Sequence record: OL956808.1
Source: Escherichia phage vB_EcoM-S1P5QW
DNA length: 64,000 nt
Strand: one strand, 5' to 3'
The position numbers and the translations under genes are program-made. Shown here piece after piece: positions 3,143-59,461 of this stretch (the stretch's first letter is position 1; every line of letters begins with the position of its first letter). The notes under the pieces were generated by a model. That model was not told the DNA's origin. It was given only the letters and a program-made list of their open reading frames with translations, and made no database searches.

Positions 3143-3823
3143 ATGATAGATAAAGATTATATTGCAGAGCTGAAGGCTCTTGATGATAACAAAGAAGCTA
3201 AAGCTAAATTAGCTGAATATGCTGAACAGTTTGGTATAAAGGTCAAAAAGAATAAATCTTTTGATAATATCGTTGTTGATATTGAAGAAGCCCTCCAGAA
3301 GCTCGCTAGTGAACCTATGCCAGAGACTGATGGGTTATCTATTAAAGACTTAATTGATGCTGCTGATGCCGCAGACGGATTAAAATATGACGATGAAGAA
3401 GTCAATCTAGAGGCAGCACTTCTGATTGATTCTCCGGTTAAATCTGACATTAAAATTGAAGTAGTAGAAATGGATAAAATTCCTGAAAATACCGATGTTT
3501 TGATTGAAGATACTCCTTTTGTTGAAGAAAAATTCGAGCAAGCTGTAGCTGAGATTATTGAATCTGAAAAGCCGTCTGTATTTACTCTTCCGGAAAACTT
3601 TAGTCCGAATCTTCAGCTGATTGGAAAAAATCCAGGATTCTGCACTGTTCCTTGGTGGATTTACCAGTGGATTGCTGAAACTCCGGATTGGAAATCTCAC
3701 CCAACAAGTTTTGAACATGCGTCGGCACACCAAACTTTATTTAGCTTAATTTATTACATTAATCGCGACGGATCAGTTCTAATTCGTGAAACACGCAATT
3801 CTTCTTTCGTAACATTAAAATAA
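3143..3823 (+). CDS. inh: Inh, inhibitor of prohead protease gp21
   Basis: 226 aa, same length and position as T4 inh, next to hoc; gagga RBS. Confidence 0.75.
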   Translation: MIDKDYIAELKALDDNKEAKAKLAEYAEQFGIKVKKNKSFDNIVVDIEEALQKLASEPMPETDGLSIKDLIDAADAADGLKYDDEEVNLEAALLIDSPVKSDIKIEVVEMDKIPENTDVLIEDTPFVEEKFEQAVAEIIESEKPSVFTLPENFSPNLQLIGKNPGFCTVPWWIYQWIAETPDWKSHPTSFEHASAHQTLFSLIYYINRDGSVLIRETRNSSFVTLK

Positions 3824-3832
3824 GGATAACTT

Positions 3833-4963
3833 ATGGCTTTTACAGTTGATATAACTCCTAAAACACCTACTGGAGTTATAGATCAGACTCAGCAGTTTAC
3901 TGCTACACCCAGTGGTCAAACTGGAGATGGACCTATTACATATGCTTGGACTGTAGACGACGCTCCACAGGAAGAAACGTCAGCAACTTTTAGTTATGTA
4001 CTAAAAGGACCTGCCGGTCAAAAGACTATTAAAGTAGTTGCAACAAATCCAGTTCCTGATTCTGAAGCTGAAACAGCTGAAATTAGTACAACTATCACAG
4101 TTCAAAATAAGACACAGACAACTACTTTAGCTGTAACTCCTAATAGTCCTCCGGAAGGAGTAATCGGAACAGCTGTTGAATTTACCGCTACTTTAGCTTC
4201 ACAGCCACCAAGTGCATCTGCTACATATAAATGGTACGTAGATGATTCTCAAATTGGTGGAGAAACTAATTCTACATTTAGCTATACTCCAACTACAAGT
4301 GGAGTAAAAAGAATTAAATGCGTAGCCCAAGTGACGGCAACGGATTATGACGCAAAAGAAGTTACTTCGAATGAAGTATCATTAACGGTTAATAAGAAGA
4401 CAATGAATCCACAGGTTACATTGACTCCTCCTTCTATTAACGTTCAACAAGATGCTTTGGCTACATTTACTGCTAATGTCACTGATGCTCCAGAAGAAGC
4501 ACAAATCGAATACTCATGGAAGAAAGATTCTTCTCCAGTAGAAGGATCAACTAATGTATATACCGTTGATACCTCATCTATTGGAAGTCAAACTATTGAA
4601 GTTACTGCAACTGTTACTGCTGCTGATTATGATAGCAAAACTATTACAGCAGAAGGTCAAGTTCAGGTAACTGATAAAGTTGCTCCGGAACCAGAAGGTG
4701 AATTGCCTTATGTTCATCCTCTTCCACATCGTACTTCAGCTTACATCTGGTGTGGTTGGTGGGTTATGGATGAAATCCAAAAAATGACCGAAGAAGGTAA
4801 AGATTGGAAAACTGATGATCCGGATAGTAAGTACTACTTGCATCGTTACACTCTTCAGAAAATGATGAAAGACTATCCAGAAGTTGATGTTCAAGAATCA
4901 CGTAATGGATACATCATTCATAAAACTGCTTTAGAAACTGGTATCATCTATACCTATCCATAA
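3833..4963 (+). CDS. hoc: Hoc, highly immunogenic outer capsid protein (Ig-like domains)
   Basis: 376 aa; N-terminus MAFTVDITPKTPTGVID... matches recalled T4 Hoc; repeated Ig-like segments; terminator hairpin after stop. Confidence 0.9.
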   Translation: MAFTVDITPKTPTGVIDQTQQFTATPSGQTGDGPITYAWTVDDAPQEETSATFSYVLKGPAGQKTIKVVATNPVPDSEAETAEISTTITVQNKTQTTTLAVTPNSPPEGVIGTAVEFTATLASQPPSASATYKWYVDDSQIGGETNSTFSYTPTTSGVKRIKCVAQVTATDYDAKEVTSNEVSLTVNKKTMNPQVTLTPPSINVQQDALATFTANVTDAPEEAQIEYSWKKDSSPVEGSTNVYTVDTSSIGSQTIEVTATVTAADYDSKTITAEGQVQVTDKVAPEPEGELPYVHPLPHRTSAYIWCGWWVMDEIQKMTEEGKDWKTDDPDSKYYLHRYTLQKMMKDYPEVDVQESRNGYIIHKTALETGIIYTYP

Positions 4964-41912: not shown

Positions 41913-41985
41913 TGGGAATTAGCCAAGTTGGTAAGGCACTGGATTTTGATTCCAGGATGCAAAGGTTCGAGTCCTTTATTCCCAG
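41913..41985 (+). tRNA. tRNA-Gln (anticodon UUG); CCA not encoded
   Basis: Cloverleaf folded by hand: acceptor tgggaat/attccca, anticodon loop ttTTGat, T-loop ggttcgagtcc. Confidence 0.85.
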
Positions 41986-41986
41986 C

Positions 41987-42073
41987 GCGAGAATGGTCAA
42001 ATTGGTAAAGGCACAGCACTTAAAATGCTGCGGAATGATTTCCTTGTGGGTTCGAGTCCCACTTCTCGCACCA
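41987..42073 (+). tRNA. tRNA-Leu (anticodon UAA), type II
   Basis: Acceptor gcgagaa/ttctcgc, anticodon loop ctTAAaa, long variable arm, encoded CCA; abuts tRNA-Gln (dimeric precursor as in T4). Confidence 0.85.
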
Positions 42074-42078
42074 AATTT

Positions 42079-42152
<74 letters not shown>

Positions 42153-42198
42153 ATTTATGTCTCGTCGTGAGACGCTCAGTTCTTTATTAGGGACTGAT

Positions 42199-42807
42199 AT
42201 GCATTTTTATCTTTATAAAATAACAAATAAAATTAATAATAAAATTTATATTGGTGTGCATTCTACCGAAAATTTAGATGATGGATATATGGGTTCTGGT
42301 AAATTATTAAAAAGAGCCCAAGATAAATATGGTATAGAAAATTTTTCTAAAGAAATATTAGAGTATTTTGATGATAAAGAATCTATGCTTGAAGCCGAGA
42401 AAAATATTGTCACAGAAGAGTTTTTAAATAGACCAGATGTGTATAATTTAAAACTTGGAGGTGAAGGTGGATGGGATCATATAAATAATTATCCTATGAC
42501 AGATCAGCAACGCGAATTAATTTCATTGGGTGTTAAAAAGGCACATTCTAACGGAAAATTAAAAGGATGGTCTTCAAATGGATTAATGAAAAATGGCTTT
42601 GCTGGTAAAACTCATTCTCAAGAAGCTAAACGTAAAATAGCAAAAGCAAACGAAGCAAAAGTTTCTGCGAATGAAAGAAAAAGAAGAATAGAAATTTCTA
42701 AATTATATGATTTTTCTAAGCGGGGTGAATTATCTAAATATGCTAAGCATATTGGCGTAAGTCATACTCAAGCAAAAAGAATTCTAAATCAAATTAACAA
42801 TATATAA
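42199..42807 (+). CDS. segB: GIY-YIG homing endonuclease, SegB-like
   Basis: GIY-YIG signature FYLYKITNKINNKIYIGVH...YMGSG; track ORF (42157) begins just after tRNA-Gly, ATG at 42199 has an RBS; inside the tRNA cluster as T4 segB. Confidence 0.75.
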   Translation: MHFYLYKITNKINNKIYIGVHSTENLDDGYMGSGKLLKRAQDKYGIENFSKEILEYFDDKESMLEAEKNIVTEEFLNRPDVYNLKLGGEGGWDHINNYPMTDQQRELISLGVKKAHSNGKLKGWSSNGLMKNGFAGKTHSQEAKRKIAKANEAKVSANERKRRIEISKLYDFSKRGELSKYAKHIGVSHTQAKRILNQINNI

Positions 42808-42813
42808 ATATTT

Positions 42814-42903
42814 GGAGGCGTGGCAGAGTGGTTTAATGCACCGGTCTTGAAAACCGGCAGTCGCTCCGGCGACTCATAGGTTCAAATCCTATCGCCTCCG
42901 CCA
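42814..42903 (+). tRNA. tRNA-Ser (anticodon UGA), type II
   Basis: Acceptor ggaggcg/cgcctcc, anticodon loop ctTGAaa, long variable arm, encoded CCA. Confidence 0.85.
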
Positions 42904-42908
42904 GTTTT

Positions 42909-42984
42909 GCTGATTTAGCTCAGTAGGTAGAGCAACTCACTTGTAATGAGAAGGTCGGCGGTTCGATTCCGTCAATCAGCACCA
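42909..42984 (+). tRNA. tRNA-Thr (anticodon UGU)
   Basis: Acceptor gctgatt/aatcagc, anticodon loop ctTGTaa, T-loop ggttcgattcc, encoded CCA. Confidence 0.8.
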
Positions 42985-42985
42985 A

Positions 42986-43060
42986 GGCCCTGTAGCTGGA
43001 AGGTTCAAGCAAGCGACTCATAATCGCCAGATGGTGGTTCAATTCCACCCAGGGCCACCA
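42986..43060 (+). tRNA. tRNA with CAU anticodon (Ile2-type as in T4, or Met)
   Basis: Acceptor ggccctg/cagggcc, anticodon loop ctCATaa, encoded CCA. Confidence 0.75.
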
Positions 43061-43069
43061 AATTAATTT

Positions 43070-43156
43070 GGGGAGTTATCCCGTAGAGGTAGCGGTGTGG
43101 ACTGTAAATCCATTGTCATTGCGACTCGGGTGGTTCGACTCCATCACTCCCCACCA
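43070..43156 (+). tRNA. tRNA-Tyr (anticodon GUA), type II
   Basis: Acceptor ggggagt/actcccc, anticodon stem gtgga/tccat with loop ctGTAaa, long variable arm resembling E. coli tRNA-Tyr, encoded CCA. Confidence 0.7.
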
Positions 43157-43160
43157 ATTT

Positions 43161-43235
43161 GGATGTGTAGCTCAATGGCAGAGCGATCGCCTGTTAAGCG
43201 ATTGGTTATAGGTTCGAATCCTATCACTTCCGCCA
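43161..43235 (+). tRNA. tRNA-Asn (anticodon GUU)
   Basis: Anticodon stem atcgc/gcgat with loop ctGTTaa, T-loop ggttcgaatcc, encoded CCA; one U-U mismatch in acceptor stem. Confidence 0.7.
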
Positions 43236-43349
43236 AATTTGTGACAACTGTCACATTAATATCTACTTGACGCGATTATCGGGGTTGAACTGATCACTCT
43301 TCTCTTAATTTCGTGTGAAGACATCTTGATTGTTGGAGTAGGTATTAAT

Positions 43350-43425
43350 GTGGCCGTAGTTCAGTTGGTAGAACTCGAGATTGTGATTCTCGTAGTCATG
43401 GGTTCGACTCCCATCGGTCACCCCA
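43350..43425 (+). tRNA. tRNA-His (anticodon GUG)
   Basis: D-stem gttc/gaac, anticodon stem cgaga/tctcg with loop ttGTGat, T-loop ggttcgactcc, discriminator C and CCA; no encoded G-1. Confidence 0.7.
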
Positions 43426-43429
43426 ATTA

Positions 43430-43505
43430 CGGGGCATAGCTCAGAAGGAAGAGCAAGGACCTTCTAAGTCCTGGGTCGTAGGTTCGATCCCTACTGCCTC
43501 GACCA
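43430..43505 (+). tRNA. tRNA-Arg (anticodon UCU)
   Basis: Acceptor cggggca/tgcctcg, anticodon stem aggac/gtcct with loop ctTCTaa, encoded CCA. Confidence 0.8.
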
Positions 43506-53801: not shown

Positions 53802-53974
53802 ATGATGATTTAAAATATCAATTATTACGTGAACTTGATGTTTTGATTGAACTTTCTGCGCAAAAAGGATTTATAATTGGATCAGGTCAAAAAGACCCCA
53901 ACGGTCATTCAATCGTAGCGGTTATGAATCAGAAACGAGTCATTTTAAAACTTTTGGGGATTGACATACTGTGA
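53798..53974 (+). CDS. hypothetical small protein
   Basis: 58 aa ORF not in track; ATG overlaps upstream stop (ATGA). Confidence 0.35.
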   Translation: MNDDLKYQLLRELDVLIELSAQKGFIIGSGQKDPNGHSIVAVMNQKRVILKLLGIDIL

Positions 53975-54156
53975 GTCTAAGCAAAGAACAAAAAGATAAA
54001 TTGTTTGAGCTTATCCATGAACTTCTAGATGAGCATATAGAAGCAAACACCTTTTATGATGAATACGGCCCGCTATCTCCAGAACAGCAGGAAGAATTTG
54101 CTGATCGGTTTGATAAGAAAGAAAATGAATTAATAGCTTATGTGAATACGCTTTAA
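53971..54156 (+). CDS. hypothetical small acidic protein
   Basis: 61 aa; GTG start overlapping upstream stop (GTGA); low certainty. Confidence 0.35.
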   Translation: MSLSKEQKDKLFELIHELLDEHIEANTFYDEYGPLSPEQQEEFADRFDKKENELIAYVNTL

Positions 54157-55691: not shown

Positions 55692-55696
55692 CATTA

Positions 55697-55722
55697 GTCT
55701 CCTTCGGGAGACTTTTTTCATT
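55697..55722 (+). terminator. intrinsic terminator after ORF 55305-55691
   Basis: Hairpin agtctcc-ttcg-ggagact followed by TTTTTT. Confidence 0.7.
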
Positions 55723-55786: not shown

Positions 55787-55975
55787 ATGAAAATTGAAGC
55801 ACTCAATCAAGAAGGAAATATCTACGTCATCATTAATGGTGATTTTTTCGTCGACATGGATGAAGTTACTAGTGAAGAACTTGTAGAATTTCTTAAGAAA
55901 CGTTATAATATGTGTGATGAAGTTGCAACTCACATGGCATGTGCAATATTCTCTCTTTCATATGTGGTGGAATAA
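55787..55975 (+). CDS. hypothetical small protein
   Basis: Track ORF starts at TTG inside promoter; ATG at 55787 with agaggag RBS gives 62 aa. Confidence 0.45.
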
Positions 55976-56178
55976 TGATTAGTATCGAACAAGCGGATAA
56001 AATTAAGGAATTGGTAGCTTTAATTCGTAAAGCAGATGAGGAACTTAGTGACTTTGCTTGGTTTTCGTCAGGCATTGCAAATAAAGGTATTGATGAACTT
56101 GAAGCTAAAGTTGATAATGCTTTAGAAGCGTTAGATATGTTTCTTGATGAAATTATCGATCATAATACGAGAGTTTAA
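55975..56178 (+). CDS. hypothetical small acidic protein
   Basis: Track ORF over-extended; ATG at 55975 (TAATG overlap) gives 67 aa. Confidence 0.45.
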   Translation: MISIEQADKIKELVALIRKADEELSDFAWFSSGIANKGIDELEAKVDNALEALDMFLDEIIDHNTRV

Positions 56179-56180
56179 GT

Positions 56181-56375
56181 ATGCTAACACGCGAACAGTT
56201 TGAAAAAATCATTAAATTAGCACGTGATATTGAAATAGATTCATACCAATTAGCAGTTGAGCATTGTGAAGGATATTCATACGACGGTATAGAAGCAGCT
56301 AAAAAGGATTTGGATAAATCTAAAGCTAAGTTAGTTCAATATCTTGAAATGATTAGGTGGAATAATGAAAACTGA
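56181..56375 (+). CDS. hypothetical small protein
   Basis: 64 aa ORF. Confidence 0.45.
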   Translation: MLTREQFEKIIKLARDIEIDSYQLAVEHCEGYSYDGIEAAKKDLDKSKAKLVQYLEMIRWNNEN

Positions 56376-56538
56376 AAAGCAGATGTTTTTAATGAAACTA
56401 ATTGAAGAATATGCTAATGCAGTTTCTGACTATGAATGTTCTTCTCGGGAAAGAGGTACAGCTTTCGCCAAAGAAGAAATGAAAATCATGGTTGATGCTC
56501 ACACAAAGCTTCAGAATTTTATTGAAAACGTCATTTAA
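56365..56538 (+). CDS. hypothetical small protein
   Basis: 57 aa ORF not in track; aggtgg RBS; overlaps upstream 3' end. Confidence 0.35.
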   Translation: MKTEKQMFLMKLIEEYANAVSDYECSSRERGTAFAKEEMKIMVDAHTKLQNFIENVI

Positions 56539-56540
56539 TG

Positions 56541-56571
56541 GTTTACAAGTTGGCAAGGTTATGGTATAGTA
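56541..56571 (+). promoter_or_regulatory. early promoter
   Basis: GTTTAC, -10 tggTATAGT. Confidence 0.5.
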
Positions 56572-56702: not shown

Positions 56703-56888
56703 ATGACAAGTGAGCAGGCTTTTAAATTAAGAGAATTAATTGAGACGTATAGTAAAGCTGTTCATACATCAACAATTATTGATGAATCAGCTTTCTCCGG
56801 ACATGCTAACAAGATTAAATACAAAACTCTTATGGAAGAAGCTAAAGTAAATCTTGATTCTTATATTGAAACTTTAATTGGTAAATAA
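56703..56888 (+). CDS. hypothetical small protein
   Basis: 61 aa; gaggag RBS; preceded by early promoter and a 34-codon mini-ORF. Confidence 0.45.
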   Translation: MTSEQAFKLRELIETYSKAVHTSTIIDESAFSGHANKIKYKTLMEEAKVNLDSYIETLIGK

Positions 56889-56889
56889 T

Positions 56890-57432
56890 ATGAAAGCTGT
56901 AATTGAAACAACTGATTTGTTCGGTGACCTAGTTATCGAAAAACGCGGTAATGTATACGTTCTGACGCAGGAAGACGATAGTATTACTATTCTTCCTATG
57001 GAACTGGCTGCGATTTTATCTTATGCTCCCTCAGGAGTTACCGGTGTAACTAATATTACAGGTGACCTCCAAGTTCGTTTTTATCGTGGCCTTTACGGCG
57101 GTAATATTGAAACTGAATTTATGTGTCTTTCTATCAACAATTGGGCAACATTCGTTGCCAAGGTGAAAGAATTCTTAGAATCTGAAACAGCCGAAACACC
57201 CGAAAAGGCTAAACTTCAATGGGCTAAAGATCGCGGTGCTAACATTATTAATCCAGTAGCTGCAAACTATACTACGACTTTGGATGTCAAGACTTCTTAT
57301 GAAGATGGCGATGTCGTACTTGTTCGCCAAAATGATGATTCTCGAGCACATATTGTCACATTTACCAAAGACGAAGCTATTGCGCTAAAGACTTATCTTG
57401 ATTCTGTCATTCCAACTATGATTTCAAAGTGA
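56890..57432 (+). CDS. hypothetical protein, tandem paralog A
   Basis: Track ORF starts at TTG 56878; ATG at 56890 gives 180 aa; C-terminus EAIALKTYLDSVIPTM resembles that of the next gene. Confidence 0.5.
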   Translation: MKAVIETTDLFGDLVIEKRGNVYVLTQEDDSITILPMELAAILSYAPSGVTGVTNITGDLQVRFYRGLYGGNIETEFMCLSINNWATFVAKVKEFLESETAETPEKAKLQWAKDRGANIINPVAANYTTTLDVKTSYEDGDVVLVRQNDDSRAHIVTFTKDEAIALKTYLDSVIPTMISK

Positions 57433-57438
57433 GGAAAT

Positions 57439-57960
57439 ATGTTTATTTCAAGTGGAAGTGGTTTAATTCGTGTTGAATTTAAAAATGACATCTTTCTTAT
57501 TCAAGGAGATGATATTATTAAAATGAGTTATGACGAAATCAAGAAAATTTGTCATGCTCTTGAAAGTCATGGAAAAGTGAACGCTGTTATTGATATTGGC
57601 GATTTATGGGTGACGCTTTATGAAGTATCCGAAGGATTTAACATTGAAGATGAAAATAACATTTTAGCTATTGATAAAAGAACTGATTTGCTTGATATAT
57701 TAAAAGCCTATGAGCAGTCAAATGGCGGAAGAAAAGCTGCATTGATTTATCAAAAACCGCATTCATGTGGAACTGCTTCAATCATTTCAAATATTGAAGG
57801 CGAAGTTGATACTTATATGTGTGTTTTAAAAGCTGGTGGTGACCGTCATCCGGATTTTATTTCTATTCGTCAAAGCAATGGAGAAATTTCATTATCAAAA
57901 TCAGAAGCTGAAGCTATGATTAAGTATTTAACAACCGTTACGCCTTCAATGAAAGGATAA
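57439..57960 (+). CDS. hypothetical protein, tandem paralog B
   Basis: 173 aa; gagga RBS; C-terminus EAEAMIKYLTTVTPSM. Confidence 0.5.
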   Translation: MFISSGSGLIRVEFKNDIFLIQGDDIIKMSYDEIKKICHALESHGKVNAVIDIGDLWVTLYEVSEGFNIEDENNILAIDKRTDLLDILKAYEQSNGGRKAALIYQKPHSCGTASIISNIEGEVDTYMCVLKAGGDRHPDFISIRQSNGEISLSKSEAEAMIKYLTTVTPSMKG

Positions 57961-57962
57961 TT

Positions 57963-58424
57963 ATGATTATTAATGAAAACTCTTGGCATTATAAATTATT
58001 CAAATTGTTTAACGACGAATGGCAACGACCTAAGACACTATGCGCATATTTTTGGTCTATTGCCATTCCTACATTTTTCGTTTCTATTTTTGGATGTGCT
58101 ATACTCGTAGGGCTAACAATTATTTGTGCAGAAAGCCTACAACGTTGGCTTATTTTCGGTAGTTTATGGACTCTTCTTCCATCGGCATTTATACTTGCAC
58201 TTTTGGTTGTTTTACTTATTATCGGTTCATTTGTTATTCCTGCACATTTGCGTGAAAAATATAAAGATTATAAATGGAAAAAGGATTATGCTTTACGCGT
58301 AGAAAATATTGATAGGGCGTATAAAGGTTTACCTCCTATTCAACCCAAGAAATCGATTATCGTTGAATTTTTAAAAGCTCGTAAAGCTAAAGTATGTCCT
58401 GTTATTGAATATAAGGCTGAATGA
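57963..58424 (+). CDS. polytopic membrane protein
   Basis: 153 aa with 2-3 hydrophobic helices; translationally coupled to the downstream nucleotidyltransferase. Confidence 0.5.
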   Translation: MIINENSWHYKLFKLFNDEWQRPKTLCAYFWSIAIPTFFVSIFGCAILVGLTIICAESLQRWLIFGSLWTLLPSAFILALLVVLLIIGSFVIPAHLREKYKDYKWKKDYALRVENIDRAYKGLPPIQPKKSIIVEFLKARKAKVCPVIEYKAE

Positions 58425-59434
58425 TGAAAACAGTAATGAAAAGCTATTTTGGTAGTCATCTTTATGGAACTTCTACCCCAGAATCTGATGTAGATTTTAA
58501 AGAAATCTTTGTTCCTCCTGCTCGCGATATTCTTATCGGAAATGTCAAAGAGCACATGAGTAAAAACACTAACAACACATCATCTAAAAACACTAAAGAT
58601 GATATTGACCATGAACTATACAGTCTTAAATATTTCTTTAAATTAGCAGCAGATGGTGAAACTGTAGCATTGGATATGCTTCACACTCCACCTGAATTAG
58701 TGGTTAAATCTGATTTGCCTGATGTGTGGAAGTTTATTCAAGACAACCGTTCTCGTTTTTATACGACTAACATGAAATCATATTTAGGATATGTTCGCAA
58801 GCAAGCTTCTAAATACGGTGTCAAGGGTTCTCGTTTGGCTGCATTACGTGATGTATTGAAAGTAGTTAATCAAATCCCTGAGCAATGGGTTGATTACCAA
58901 GAAGACGGTTCCATTAAGCATCGTCGAACTAAAGTTGAAGATATTAAGCATCGTCTTCCAGAGAACGAATTCTGTGAATGGGTATTCCATAATCATGAGA
59001 AAACAGGTCCACAAACGTTCTACACTGTGTTGGGTCGTAAATATCAAACAACGCTTTCTCTCATTGAGCTTAAGCAGTCTTTGAATAAACTTGATGCTGA
59101 ATACGGCGAACGTGCTCGTAAGGCTGAAGCGAATGAGGGCATTGACTGGAAAGCTCTGAGTCATGCTTGCCGTGGTGGACTCCAACTATTGGAAATTTAC
59201 AAAACTGGTGACTTAGTCTATCCACTTCAAGATGCTCCATTTATTCTTGACGTGAAGTTGGGTAAGCATCCATTTAAAACGGTTCAAGAGTTTTTAGAAG
59301 ATGTGGTCGATCAAGTAGAAGCAGCATCTACTGAAGCTTCTAAGAACGGTATGCAGCAAAAAGTAGACATGAGTTTCTGGGATGACTTCCTTGAGAAGGT
59401 GTATCTCGAAAACCATCGAAGTTATTATAAATGA
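58421..59434 (+). CDS. Pol-beta superfamily nucleotidyltransferase-like protein
   Basis: 337 aa; N-terminal signature FGSHLYGTSTPESDVDF (G[GS]x9-13DxD) plus downstream acidic ALDMLH; ATGA overlap with upstream gene; terminator after stop. Confidence 0.6.
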   Translation: MMKTVMKSYFGSHLYGTSTPESDVDFKEIFVPPARDILIGNVKEHMSKNTNNTSSKNTKDDIDHELYSLKYFFKLAADGETVALDMLHTPPELVVKSDLPDVWKFIQDNRSRFYTTNMKSYLGYVRKQASKYGVKGSRLAALRDVLKVVNQIPEQWVDYQEDGSIKHRRTKVEDIKHRLPENEFCEWVFHNHEKTGPQTFYTVLGRKYQTTLSLIELKQSLNKLDAEYGERARKAEANEGIDWKALSHACRGGLQLLEIYKTGDLVYPLQDAPFILDVKLGKHPFKTVQEFLEDVVDQVEAASTEASKNGMQQKVDMSFWDDFLEKVYLENHRSYYK

Positions 59435-59461
59435 TAGGGAGCCTTCGGGCTCCCTTTTTTA
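59433..59461 (+). terminator. intrinsic terminator after the nucleotidyltransferase gene
   Basis: Hairpin gggagcc-ttcg-ggctccc followed by TTTTTT. Confidence 0.7.

Follow-up and report, generated by a model that had tools for sequence, protein, structure and literature searches.

Introduction

PC4-like domains occur in two forms, a ββββα-ββββα arrangement classified as 'type I' and a single ββββα repeat classified as 'type II', in which the fold is completed through helix-swapped dimerisation (Janowski and Niessing 2020, PMC7549692). Pur-alpha is the sole protein reported to contain both types, its repeat III being the one that dimerises (PMC7549692). The type II PC4-like proteins PC4/Sub1, YdbC, Borrelia Pur-alpha, the T5 protein 4bg7 and AcrIIA22 bind or nick nucleic acids, and for none of these five is fusion with a type I domain known.

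The MobD.1 family of T4-like phages is already catalogued (Pfam T4_y05I, PHROG 1502; T4 MobD.1 is Y05I_BPT4), and hundreds of deposited genomes contain near-identical copies annotated as hypothetical proteins. Its Pfam name, 'putative transcription factor', suggests that a fold-based guess has already been made. In the literature we found mobD.1 mentioned in a single paper, and there only as a flank of the mobD insertion site, and no link between PC4-like folds and T4 genes.

Here we analyse two neighbouring genes, gene 1 and gene 2, in a stretch of 64,000 nucleotides (the window) of Escherichia phage vB_EcoM-S1P5QW (OL956808.1). Like T4 MobD.1, both products carry both Pfam domains of the family and belong to PHROG 1502, gene 1 lies in the mobD.1 position and the C-terminal ...ALKTYLDSVIPTMISK is identical to that of the T4 protein. 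Unlike in T4, the gene 1 product is only 48% identical to MobD.1 (39% in the N-domain), and gene 2 has no T4 counterpart. We read the two genes as ancient tandem paralogues whose products are predicted to adopt a PC4/PUR-like fold, would dimerise through their C-domains and may have a protein as ligand, an explanation to which we assign, taken as a whole, a probability of about 0.6. The tandem paralogy itself adds little, since the family is already grouped in Pfam and PHROGs and occurs almost unchanged in hundreds of sequenced T-even phages, and a pair of this kind is nothing unusual in the hyperplastic early part of a T-even genome; what is added here is a structural reading of the shared C-terminal motif, a reason why T4 is without gene 2 and a description of modular, allele-rich evolution.

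Gene 1 and gene 2 are paralogues in the mobD.1 region

The window comes from the genome of a T-even phage, genus Tequatrovirus. Searching with a 3-kb query around the gene pair matched 649 phage records, the best match being RB18 with 98.1% identity. According to open reading frames and annotation, the order on the + strand is tk, rI.1, rI and rI.-1, then the small genes mobD.5 to mobD.2 and a 61-aa DUF7438 gene, followed by gene 1, gene 2, a gene for a 153-aa membrane protein, nrdC.11 (RlaP-type nucleotidyltransferase) and nrdC.10 (AAA-type ATPase); the coordinates are listed in Table 1. The gene pair thus sits between rI.-1 and nrdC.11, the position of the family in T-even phages. Gene 1 is the positional orthologue of T4 mobD.1 (Y05I family) and belongs to an RB18-type minority allele class, and gene 2 is a paralogue specific to Tequatrovirus that is missing in T4.

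The genes are tightly packed. The ATG of gene 1 lies one base past the stop of the preceding gene, the spacer between gene 1 and gene 2 is 6 nt with both genes in the same reading frame, and the Shine-Dalgarno sequence of gene 2, GAGG, overlaps the TGA of gene 1. The membrane gene starts two bases past the stop of gene 2, and its own stop overlaps the start of nrdC.11 in the sequence ATGA. Promoter-like sites are no more numerous in this region than expected from shuffles, and Rfam gave no RNA elements in the gene-pair region. A 58-aa minus-strand open reading frame within gene 1 (57175-57351) was rejected as unsupported.

Table 1. Features of the gene pair and its surroundings, in window coordinates; structural assignments are predictions
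Feature	Position	Strand	Basis and remarks
Terminator-like hairpin, similar to the one after nrdC.11, after rI.-1	55696-55713		Sequence
Best sigma-70-like promoter match, TTTACA-17-TATAGT with TG	56542..56570	+	Consensus match only; upstream of gene block
Gene 1, MobD.1, 180 aa	56890..57432 (ATG 56890 to TGA 57432)	+	RB18 annotation, PF24449 and PF24448, phrog_1502
Gene 1 N-domain (T4_y05I_N), residues 4-100	56899..57189	+	Pfam E=1.6e-31; putative ββββα-ββββα (type I PC4/PUR-like) by homology to gene 2 model
Gene 1 C-domain (T4_y05I_C), residues 108-177, one putative β-sheet and helix repeat	57211..57420	+	Pfam, aligned with stand-alone C-domain proteins
Gene 1 motif EAIALKTYLDSVIPTMISK, putative terminal helix of repeat 3	57373..57429	+	Helix position inferred from gene 2 models
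Gene 2, 'RB32ORF097c', 173 aa	57439..57960 (ATG to TAA)	+	RB18 annotation, PF24449 and PF24448
Gene 2 N-domain, residues 2-95, ββββα-ββββα, PUR repeat I-II / Whirly-like	57442..57723	+	Predicted
Gene 2 repeat 1, residues 9-43, internal repeat of the C-terminal strand-strand-helix	57463..57567	+	hhalign
Gene 2 C-domain, residues 102-171, five strands and helix, type II (dimerising) PC4-like half-domain	57742..57951	+	Predicted
Gene 2 motif EAEAMIKYLTTVTPSMKG, putative terminal helix, H154-167 and H169-172	57904..57957	+	Model
Small membrane protein gene, 153 aa	57963..58424	+	phrog_944, synteny
nrdC.11, RlaP-type nucleotidyltransferase	58421..59434	+	Pfam RlaP E=1.9e-11, phrog_388, T4/RB18 annotation
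Intrinsic-terminator-like hairpin and T-run, block end after nrdC.11	59436..59455	+	Sequence

The first-pass annotation of this DNA had described the pair as genes of similar size with related C-terminal ends and had proposed a duplication followed by divergence. Sizes, coordinates and ends agree with that description, the products having 180 aa ending in ...EAIALKTYLDSVIPTMISK and 173 aa ending in ...EAEAMIKYLTTVTPSMKG, and tandem duplication with divergence was borne out: the genes are adjacent, on the same strand and homologous over their full length. In the pairwise comparison that had been suggested as a check, BLASTP aligned residues 12-177 of the gene 1 product with residues 8-171 of the gene 2 product at 28% identity (E=6e-9), a significant full-length similarity, and the local alignment score was 96 as compared with 29.8 ± 4.9 in 2000 shuffles (z=13.5). 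As z was still 8.5 with the last 25 residues cut from both proteins, the similarity extends beyond the C-terminus. Both proteins matched PF24449 (T4_y05I_N; E 1.6e-31 and 109.3 bits for gene 1, E 1.8e-33 and 115.6 bits for gene 2) and PF24448 (T4_y05I_C; E 2.8e-17 and 63.3 bits, E 2.3e-22 and 79.6 bits) well above the gathering scores of 24.9 and 27 bits, respectively, and both were matched end to end by phrog_1502 (E ~1e-66). Judged by sequence comparison, gene 1 and gene 2 are almost certainly paralogous members of the MobD.1 family. No further family members were found within the 64-kb window.

Gene 1 falls together with mobD.1 genes that other genera carry in single copy (33-39% identity), and gene 2 forms a separate deep branch with 24-30% identity to single-copy and gene-1-type genes. 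At the DNA level, blastn gave no match between gene 1 and gene 2 better than E=0.12. The clustering of gene 1 with mobD.1 of other genera, the deep outlying position of gene 2 and the loss of DNA similarity indicate that the duplication is old, and neither sign of a recent duplication was seen, residual DNA similarity being absent and the paralogues not being each other's closest relatives.

A homing endonuclease fills the slot of gene 2 in T4

T4 has kept mobD.1 (locus L001, 13284-13829) and has lost both gene 2 and the membrane gene. The T4 HNH homing endonuclease gene mobD (L001, 12430-13209) lies exactly at the slot of these two genes, which explains why T4 is without gene 2. Genes of the T4 mobD type (at least 95% identity) were present in only 47 records. 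In another locus (L012, 6930-7733) the membrane gene and nrdC.11 are separated by an inserted mobD-like gene and no neighbour is missing; set against this, the T4 arrangement suggests an insertion that was accompanied by a deletion. T4 tolerates the loss of an nrdC.11-mobD.3 fragment (PMC9825161); the genes are dispensable in the laboratory. We regard the two genes as non-essential and variable in copy number within a tightly packed block.

The naming of these genes in public records is uneven. In several RefSeq records mobD.1, and also T4 mobD.4, is named 'molybdopterin-guanine dinucleotide biosynthesis protein MobD', which is an error arising from a name collision with bacterial mob genes. 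In the ime09 record gene 2 is labelled mobD.1.

Predicted fold and domain architecture

The gene 2 product was modelled at full length with AlphaFold2 using a 23-sequence alignment (pLDDT 85.4), and secondary structure was assigned with DSSP. In the model, residues 1-95 are predicted to form four strands and a helix followed by another four strands and a helix, and residues 100-173 are predicted to form five strands and a helix, one strand beyond the canonical repeat. The predicted architecture is thus one of three β-sheet and helix repeats per protein, with repeats 1 and 2 forming one N-terminal domain and repeat 3 being a lone half-domain. Profile-profile comparison with hhalign related repeat 1 to repeat 3 (probability 92.7%, E=4.2e-7) and detected no sequence similarity of repeat 2 to either of them. 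At the level of single sequences the internal repeat is weak, with p about 0.01 in gene 1 and no significance in gene 2.

The shared C-terminal ends had been taken for a conserved motif. The ends are indeed shared, but they do not constitute a free-standing motif, as they correspond to the predicted last strand and helix of a whole conserved domain, T4_y05I_C, which also occurs as stand-alone proteins of ~75 aa.

The best structural matches of the model were Pur-alpha, MRP1/MRP2, Whirly, PC4/Sub1, YdbC and the T5 PC4-like protein, with those of the PC4 type ranking lower; an SsgA-like protein, type VII secretion chaperones and COMM domains, which are not named nucleic-acid binders, were also among the matches. 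The predicted model has the topology that defines the PC4-like superfamily and resembles recognised members structurally, and on this basis the family probably has a PC4/PUR-like fold. When the PDB was searched with the full-length model in Foldseek, no hit reached E<=0.001, and the sliding clamps in the top rows, with TM values of about 0.2, are meaningless. Searching PDB sequences with the family profile returned Utp7 and Pho80 as chance-level matches only and otherwise nothing.

Among described proteins the predicted architecture resembles that of Pur-alpha, in which repeats I and II assemble intramolecularly into one domain and the third repeat forms an intermolecular dimer. Unlike Pur-alpha, the phage proteins are acidic and their third repeat has five predicted strands, and identities in structural alignments amount to 5-16%. 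No match to the Pfam families PurA, PC4 or Whirly was obtained for either protein at E<=1. By sequence, the MobD.1 family therefore does not belong to the Pur-alpha family, and it has the predicted architecture alone in common with it. The type II PC4-like proteins named above bind or nick nucleic acids; the MobD.1 family is acidic and is not related to them in sequence. The SsgA-like proteins (3cm1) and the Whirly and MRP1/MRP2 proteins form other oligomeric assemblies and have no sequence similarity to the family. SsgA-like proteins are cell-division factors for which no nucleic-acid binding is known. Should the Pur-alpha-like architecture be confirmed, the layout, so far reported for Pur-alpha alone, would have a second example in the MobD.1 family, which would be of interest for the structural biology of PC4-like domains, although it resolves no long-standing question.

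The MobD.1 family is modular

When 1.84 billion representative proteins were searched exhaustively by profile, only 25 reached E<=1e-3, and all genomic contexts inspected were those of Tevenvirinae-like phages. The MobD.1 family thus appears to be an accessory family, here found only in T4-like phages of the Tevenvirinae. Neither gene 1 nor gene 2 was matched by PADLOC or NCBIfam.

Family members occur in two forms, one of about 173-196 aa with both domains and one of about 70-87 aa that consists of the C-domain alone, the latter with the strongly conserved end ...TKxEAxALVxYLNSVIPTMK. In both EcS1 and Moon the gene for the stand-alone C-domain sits in the same genomic slot; it is tandemly duplicated in Moon, and in EcS1 it follows a tudor gene. 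Among metagenomic phages, one group (P0011) has a single hybrid gene with a mobD.1-type N-half and a gene-2-type C-half, and another (P0010) has a gene-2-type gene only. In these loci (region 4001-4540 of L020, L021 and L022; 1533-2057 of L024) a Phage_tudor (PF24144) gene precedes the family gene and the membrane gene follows it.

The two domains differ in their conservation. Between the gene 1 product and T4 MobD.1 the N-domains are 39% and the C-domains 59% identical, and between the gene 2 product and its T2-type variant the respective values are 40% and 77%, so that in these comparisons divergence is much greater in the N-domains. The family is modular, with variable N-domains and constant C-domains, and this modular evolution is documented by the stand-alone C-domains, the natural hybrid and the deeply diverged N-domain alleles.

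Proposed dimerisation and ligand, and the downstream membrane protein

By analogy with type II proteins, repeat 3 would be unable to complete the fold alone and would pair with a second repeat via helix swapping. As a lone PC4-like repeat needs a partner (PMC7549692), the C-domain is most likely a dimerisation module, and we consider dimerisation through it a little more probable than not. The products would form homodimers, and possibly heterodimers where gene 1 and gene 2 coexist. The pattern of variation suggests that the N-domain may be the variable, ligand-recognising part and the C-domain the constant part.

All computed family sequences but one have a pI of 4.2-5.8, with net charges down to -22, and the pI of the N-domains is 4.3-4.4. 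Invariant across the family are T, Q, E, L, Y, V and P residues, rather than basic or aromatic ones. A protein ligand is favoured because the family is acidic, its conserved residues are not basic or aromatic and the same fold is found in proteins that are not named as nucleic-acid binders; that the ligand is a protein rather than a nucleic acid nevertheless stands at roughly even odds in our estimate. Candidate ligands would be a host or a phage protein, e.g. the basic cytoplasmic tail of the downstream membrane protein.

The products might instead be classical ssDNA or RNA binders of the PC4/Pur-alpha type, in keeping with the name 'putative transcription factor', with phage or host nucleic acid as their target, for instance in early or middle gene regulation, in recombination or in RNA repair together with the RlaP-type nucleotidyltransferase. 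Nucleic-acid binders head the list of structural matches, DNA-acting PC4-like proteins are known from phages, namely the T5 SSB-like factor (PMC7549692) and AcrIIA22 (PMC8545432), and the genes share their tightly packed block with the nucleotidyltransferase gene of the RlaP family. The acidic character of the proteins and the composition of their conserved residues argue against this explanation, which we regard as possible but unlikely, and from the sequences nucleic-acid binding by the gene 1 and gene 2 products is doubtful.

The pair had also been placed immediately upstream of a membrane-protein and nucleotidyltransferase module. The genes do lie directly upstream of the membrane-protein gene and nrdC.11, and the arrangement recurs in other genera of the Tevenvirinae, where in most of the loci that were examined the membrane gene comes directly after the family gene; the link between them, however, is separable. 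The membrane protein has two hydrophobic regions and a mostly basic C-terminal tail, with a net charge of +8, and conserved motifs at its N-terminus (SWH...LCxYFW) and C-terminus (KARKxKxCPxI), which in their longer forms read NSWHxxL...RPxSLCxYFW and FLKARKxKxCPxIEF. Its match to the phrog_944 profile spans only positions 85-229 of 235, and it matched no Pfam family above threshold.

This neighbourhood raises the alternative that the products are soluble partners or regulatory subunits of the membrane protein, with the C-domain docking onto its basic tail and the gene pair as the functional unit. Three observations speak against it. T4 and about 47 close relatives have an intact mobD.1 although mobD replaces the membrane gene, and the loci are phylogenetically related, so that the adjacency may be plain synteny. 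In addition, a distant T4-like metagenomic phage (L025) has two tandem membrane-protein paralogues directly after rI (3507-4004 and 4001-4390), with the motifs SWH...LCPYFW ... KxKxCPxL, and no detectable gene of the Y05I family, which indicates that the membrane-protein family can stand without the MobD.1 family. We therefore consider a dedicated membrane partnership improbable. The 165-aa gene upstream of the distant membrane-protein homologue was considered as a cryptic family member and rejected, as the hhalign probability was 0.03% and the gene is a second membrane-protein paralogue.

A protein-binding dimer, as we prefer it, may be extended to a phage Pur-alpha-like, acidic scaffold that does not bind nucleic acids, in which a hypervariable N-domain would recognise a host protein (e.g. 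in defence or counter-defence) and the C-domain would dimerise, possibly mixing the paralogues, and dock the membrane protein. We regard this extended version as speculative and quite improbable. Taken together, the structural reading, the reason for the absence of gene 2 from T4 and the modular evolution make it reasonable to consider the family, in the T4 model system, a candidate host-interaction factor that can be put to the test.

Alleles and selection

The allele class of gene 1 (at least 90% identity) was found in 73 of 732 phage records; the mobD.1 slot was occupied by this window/RB18 type in these 73 records, by a class of 60-80% identity in 152 and by the T4 type (<60%) in 507. Between mobD.1 allele classes dS is about 0.9-1.3 (saturated) as compared with 0.05-0.2 for the adjacent gene 2. 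The genes flanking the mobD.1 slot are >90% identical, yet alleles in the slot go down to 48% protein identity. Copies of gene 2 with at least 80% identity were present in 433 phage records.

Purifying selection acts on both genes. For gene 2, dN/dS was 0.09-0.30 in 9 of 10 pairs, the value of 0.75 in the tenth coming from a pair with only 4 substitutions, and the match covered at least 80% of the gene in 480 of 481 records. Gene 1 is identical in nucleotide sequence to the RB18 gene, and T4-type mobD.1 alleles have a dN/dS of 0.20. That one copy is a redundant, decaying duplicate, or that the likeness is a short C-terminal motif without common descent, is very improbable: some phages do have one copy and both genes are frameshifted in two T2 records, but these selection and coverage values speak against decay, the full-length similarity outlasts removal of the C-terminus and both domains of both proteins pass the Pfam thresholds.

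In one of these records, phage T2 PV648364 (L003, 2440-2990 and 3001-3522), paired frame-restoring frameshifts are present in both genes, those in gene 2 being -1 nt and -2 nt, and in the sister T2 record PV648363 the match is fragmented into 3 pieces. Since PV648363 is also fragmented, the lesions are not specific to the T2 'escape mutant'. The T2 frameshifts may be real pseudogenes in that stock or strain- or sequencing-related errors.

Other paralogues and genes in the window

The region contains a second, larger paralogue array, a set of at least five DUF7438 paralogues of 57-67 aa (53971-54156, 55975-56178, 56181-56375, 56365-56538 and 56703-56888) located around tk and rI, whose members are T4 tk.1, mobD.4, mobD.3 and mobD.2a and an RB18-specific ORF. 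Searching the window for DUF7438 paralogues with jackhmmer returned the query only, and the others were detected by Pfam. The DUF7438 gene at 56703-56888 is labelled 'helicase loader' (RefSeq, phrog_4859), which is doubtful for a 61-aa protein. Further upstream, ten tRNA genes on the + strand (41913-43502) scored above the Rfam gathering threshold, and one was marginal with 30.2 bits; this cluster is the T-even tRNA region.
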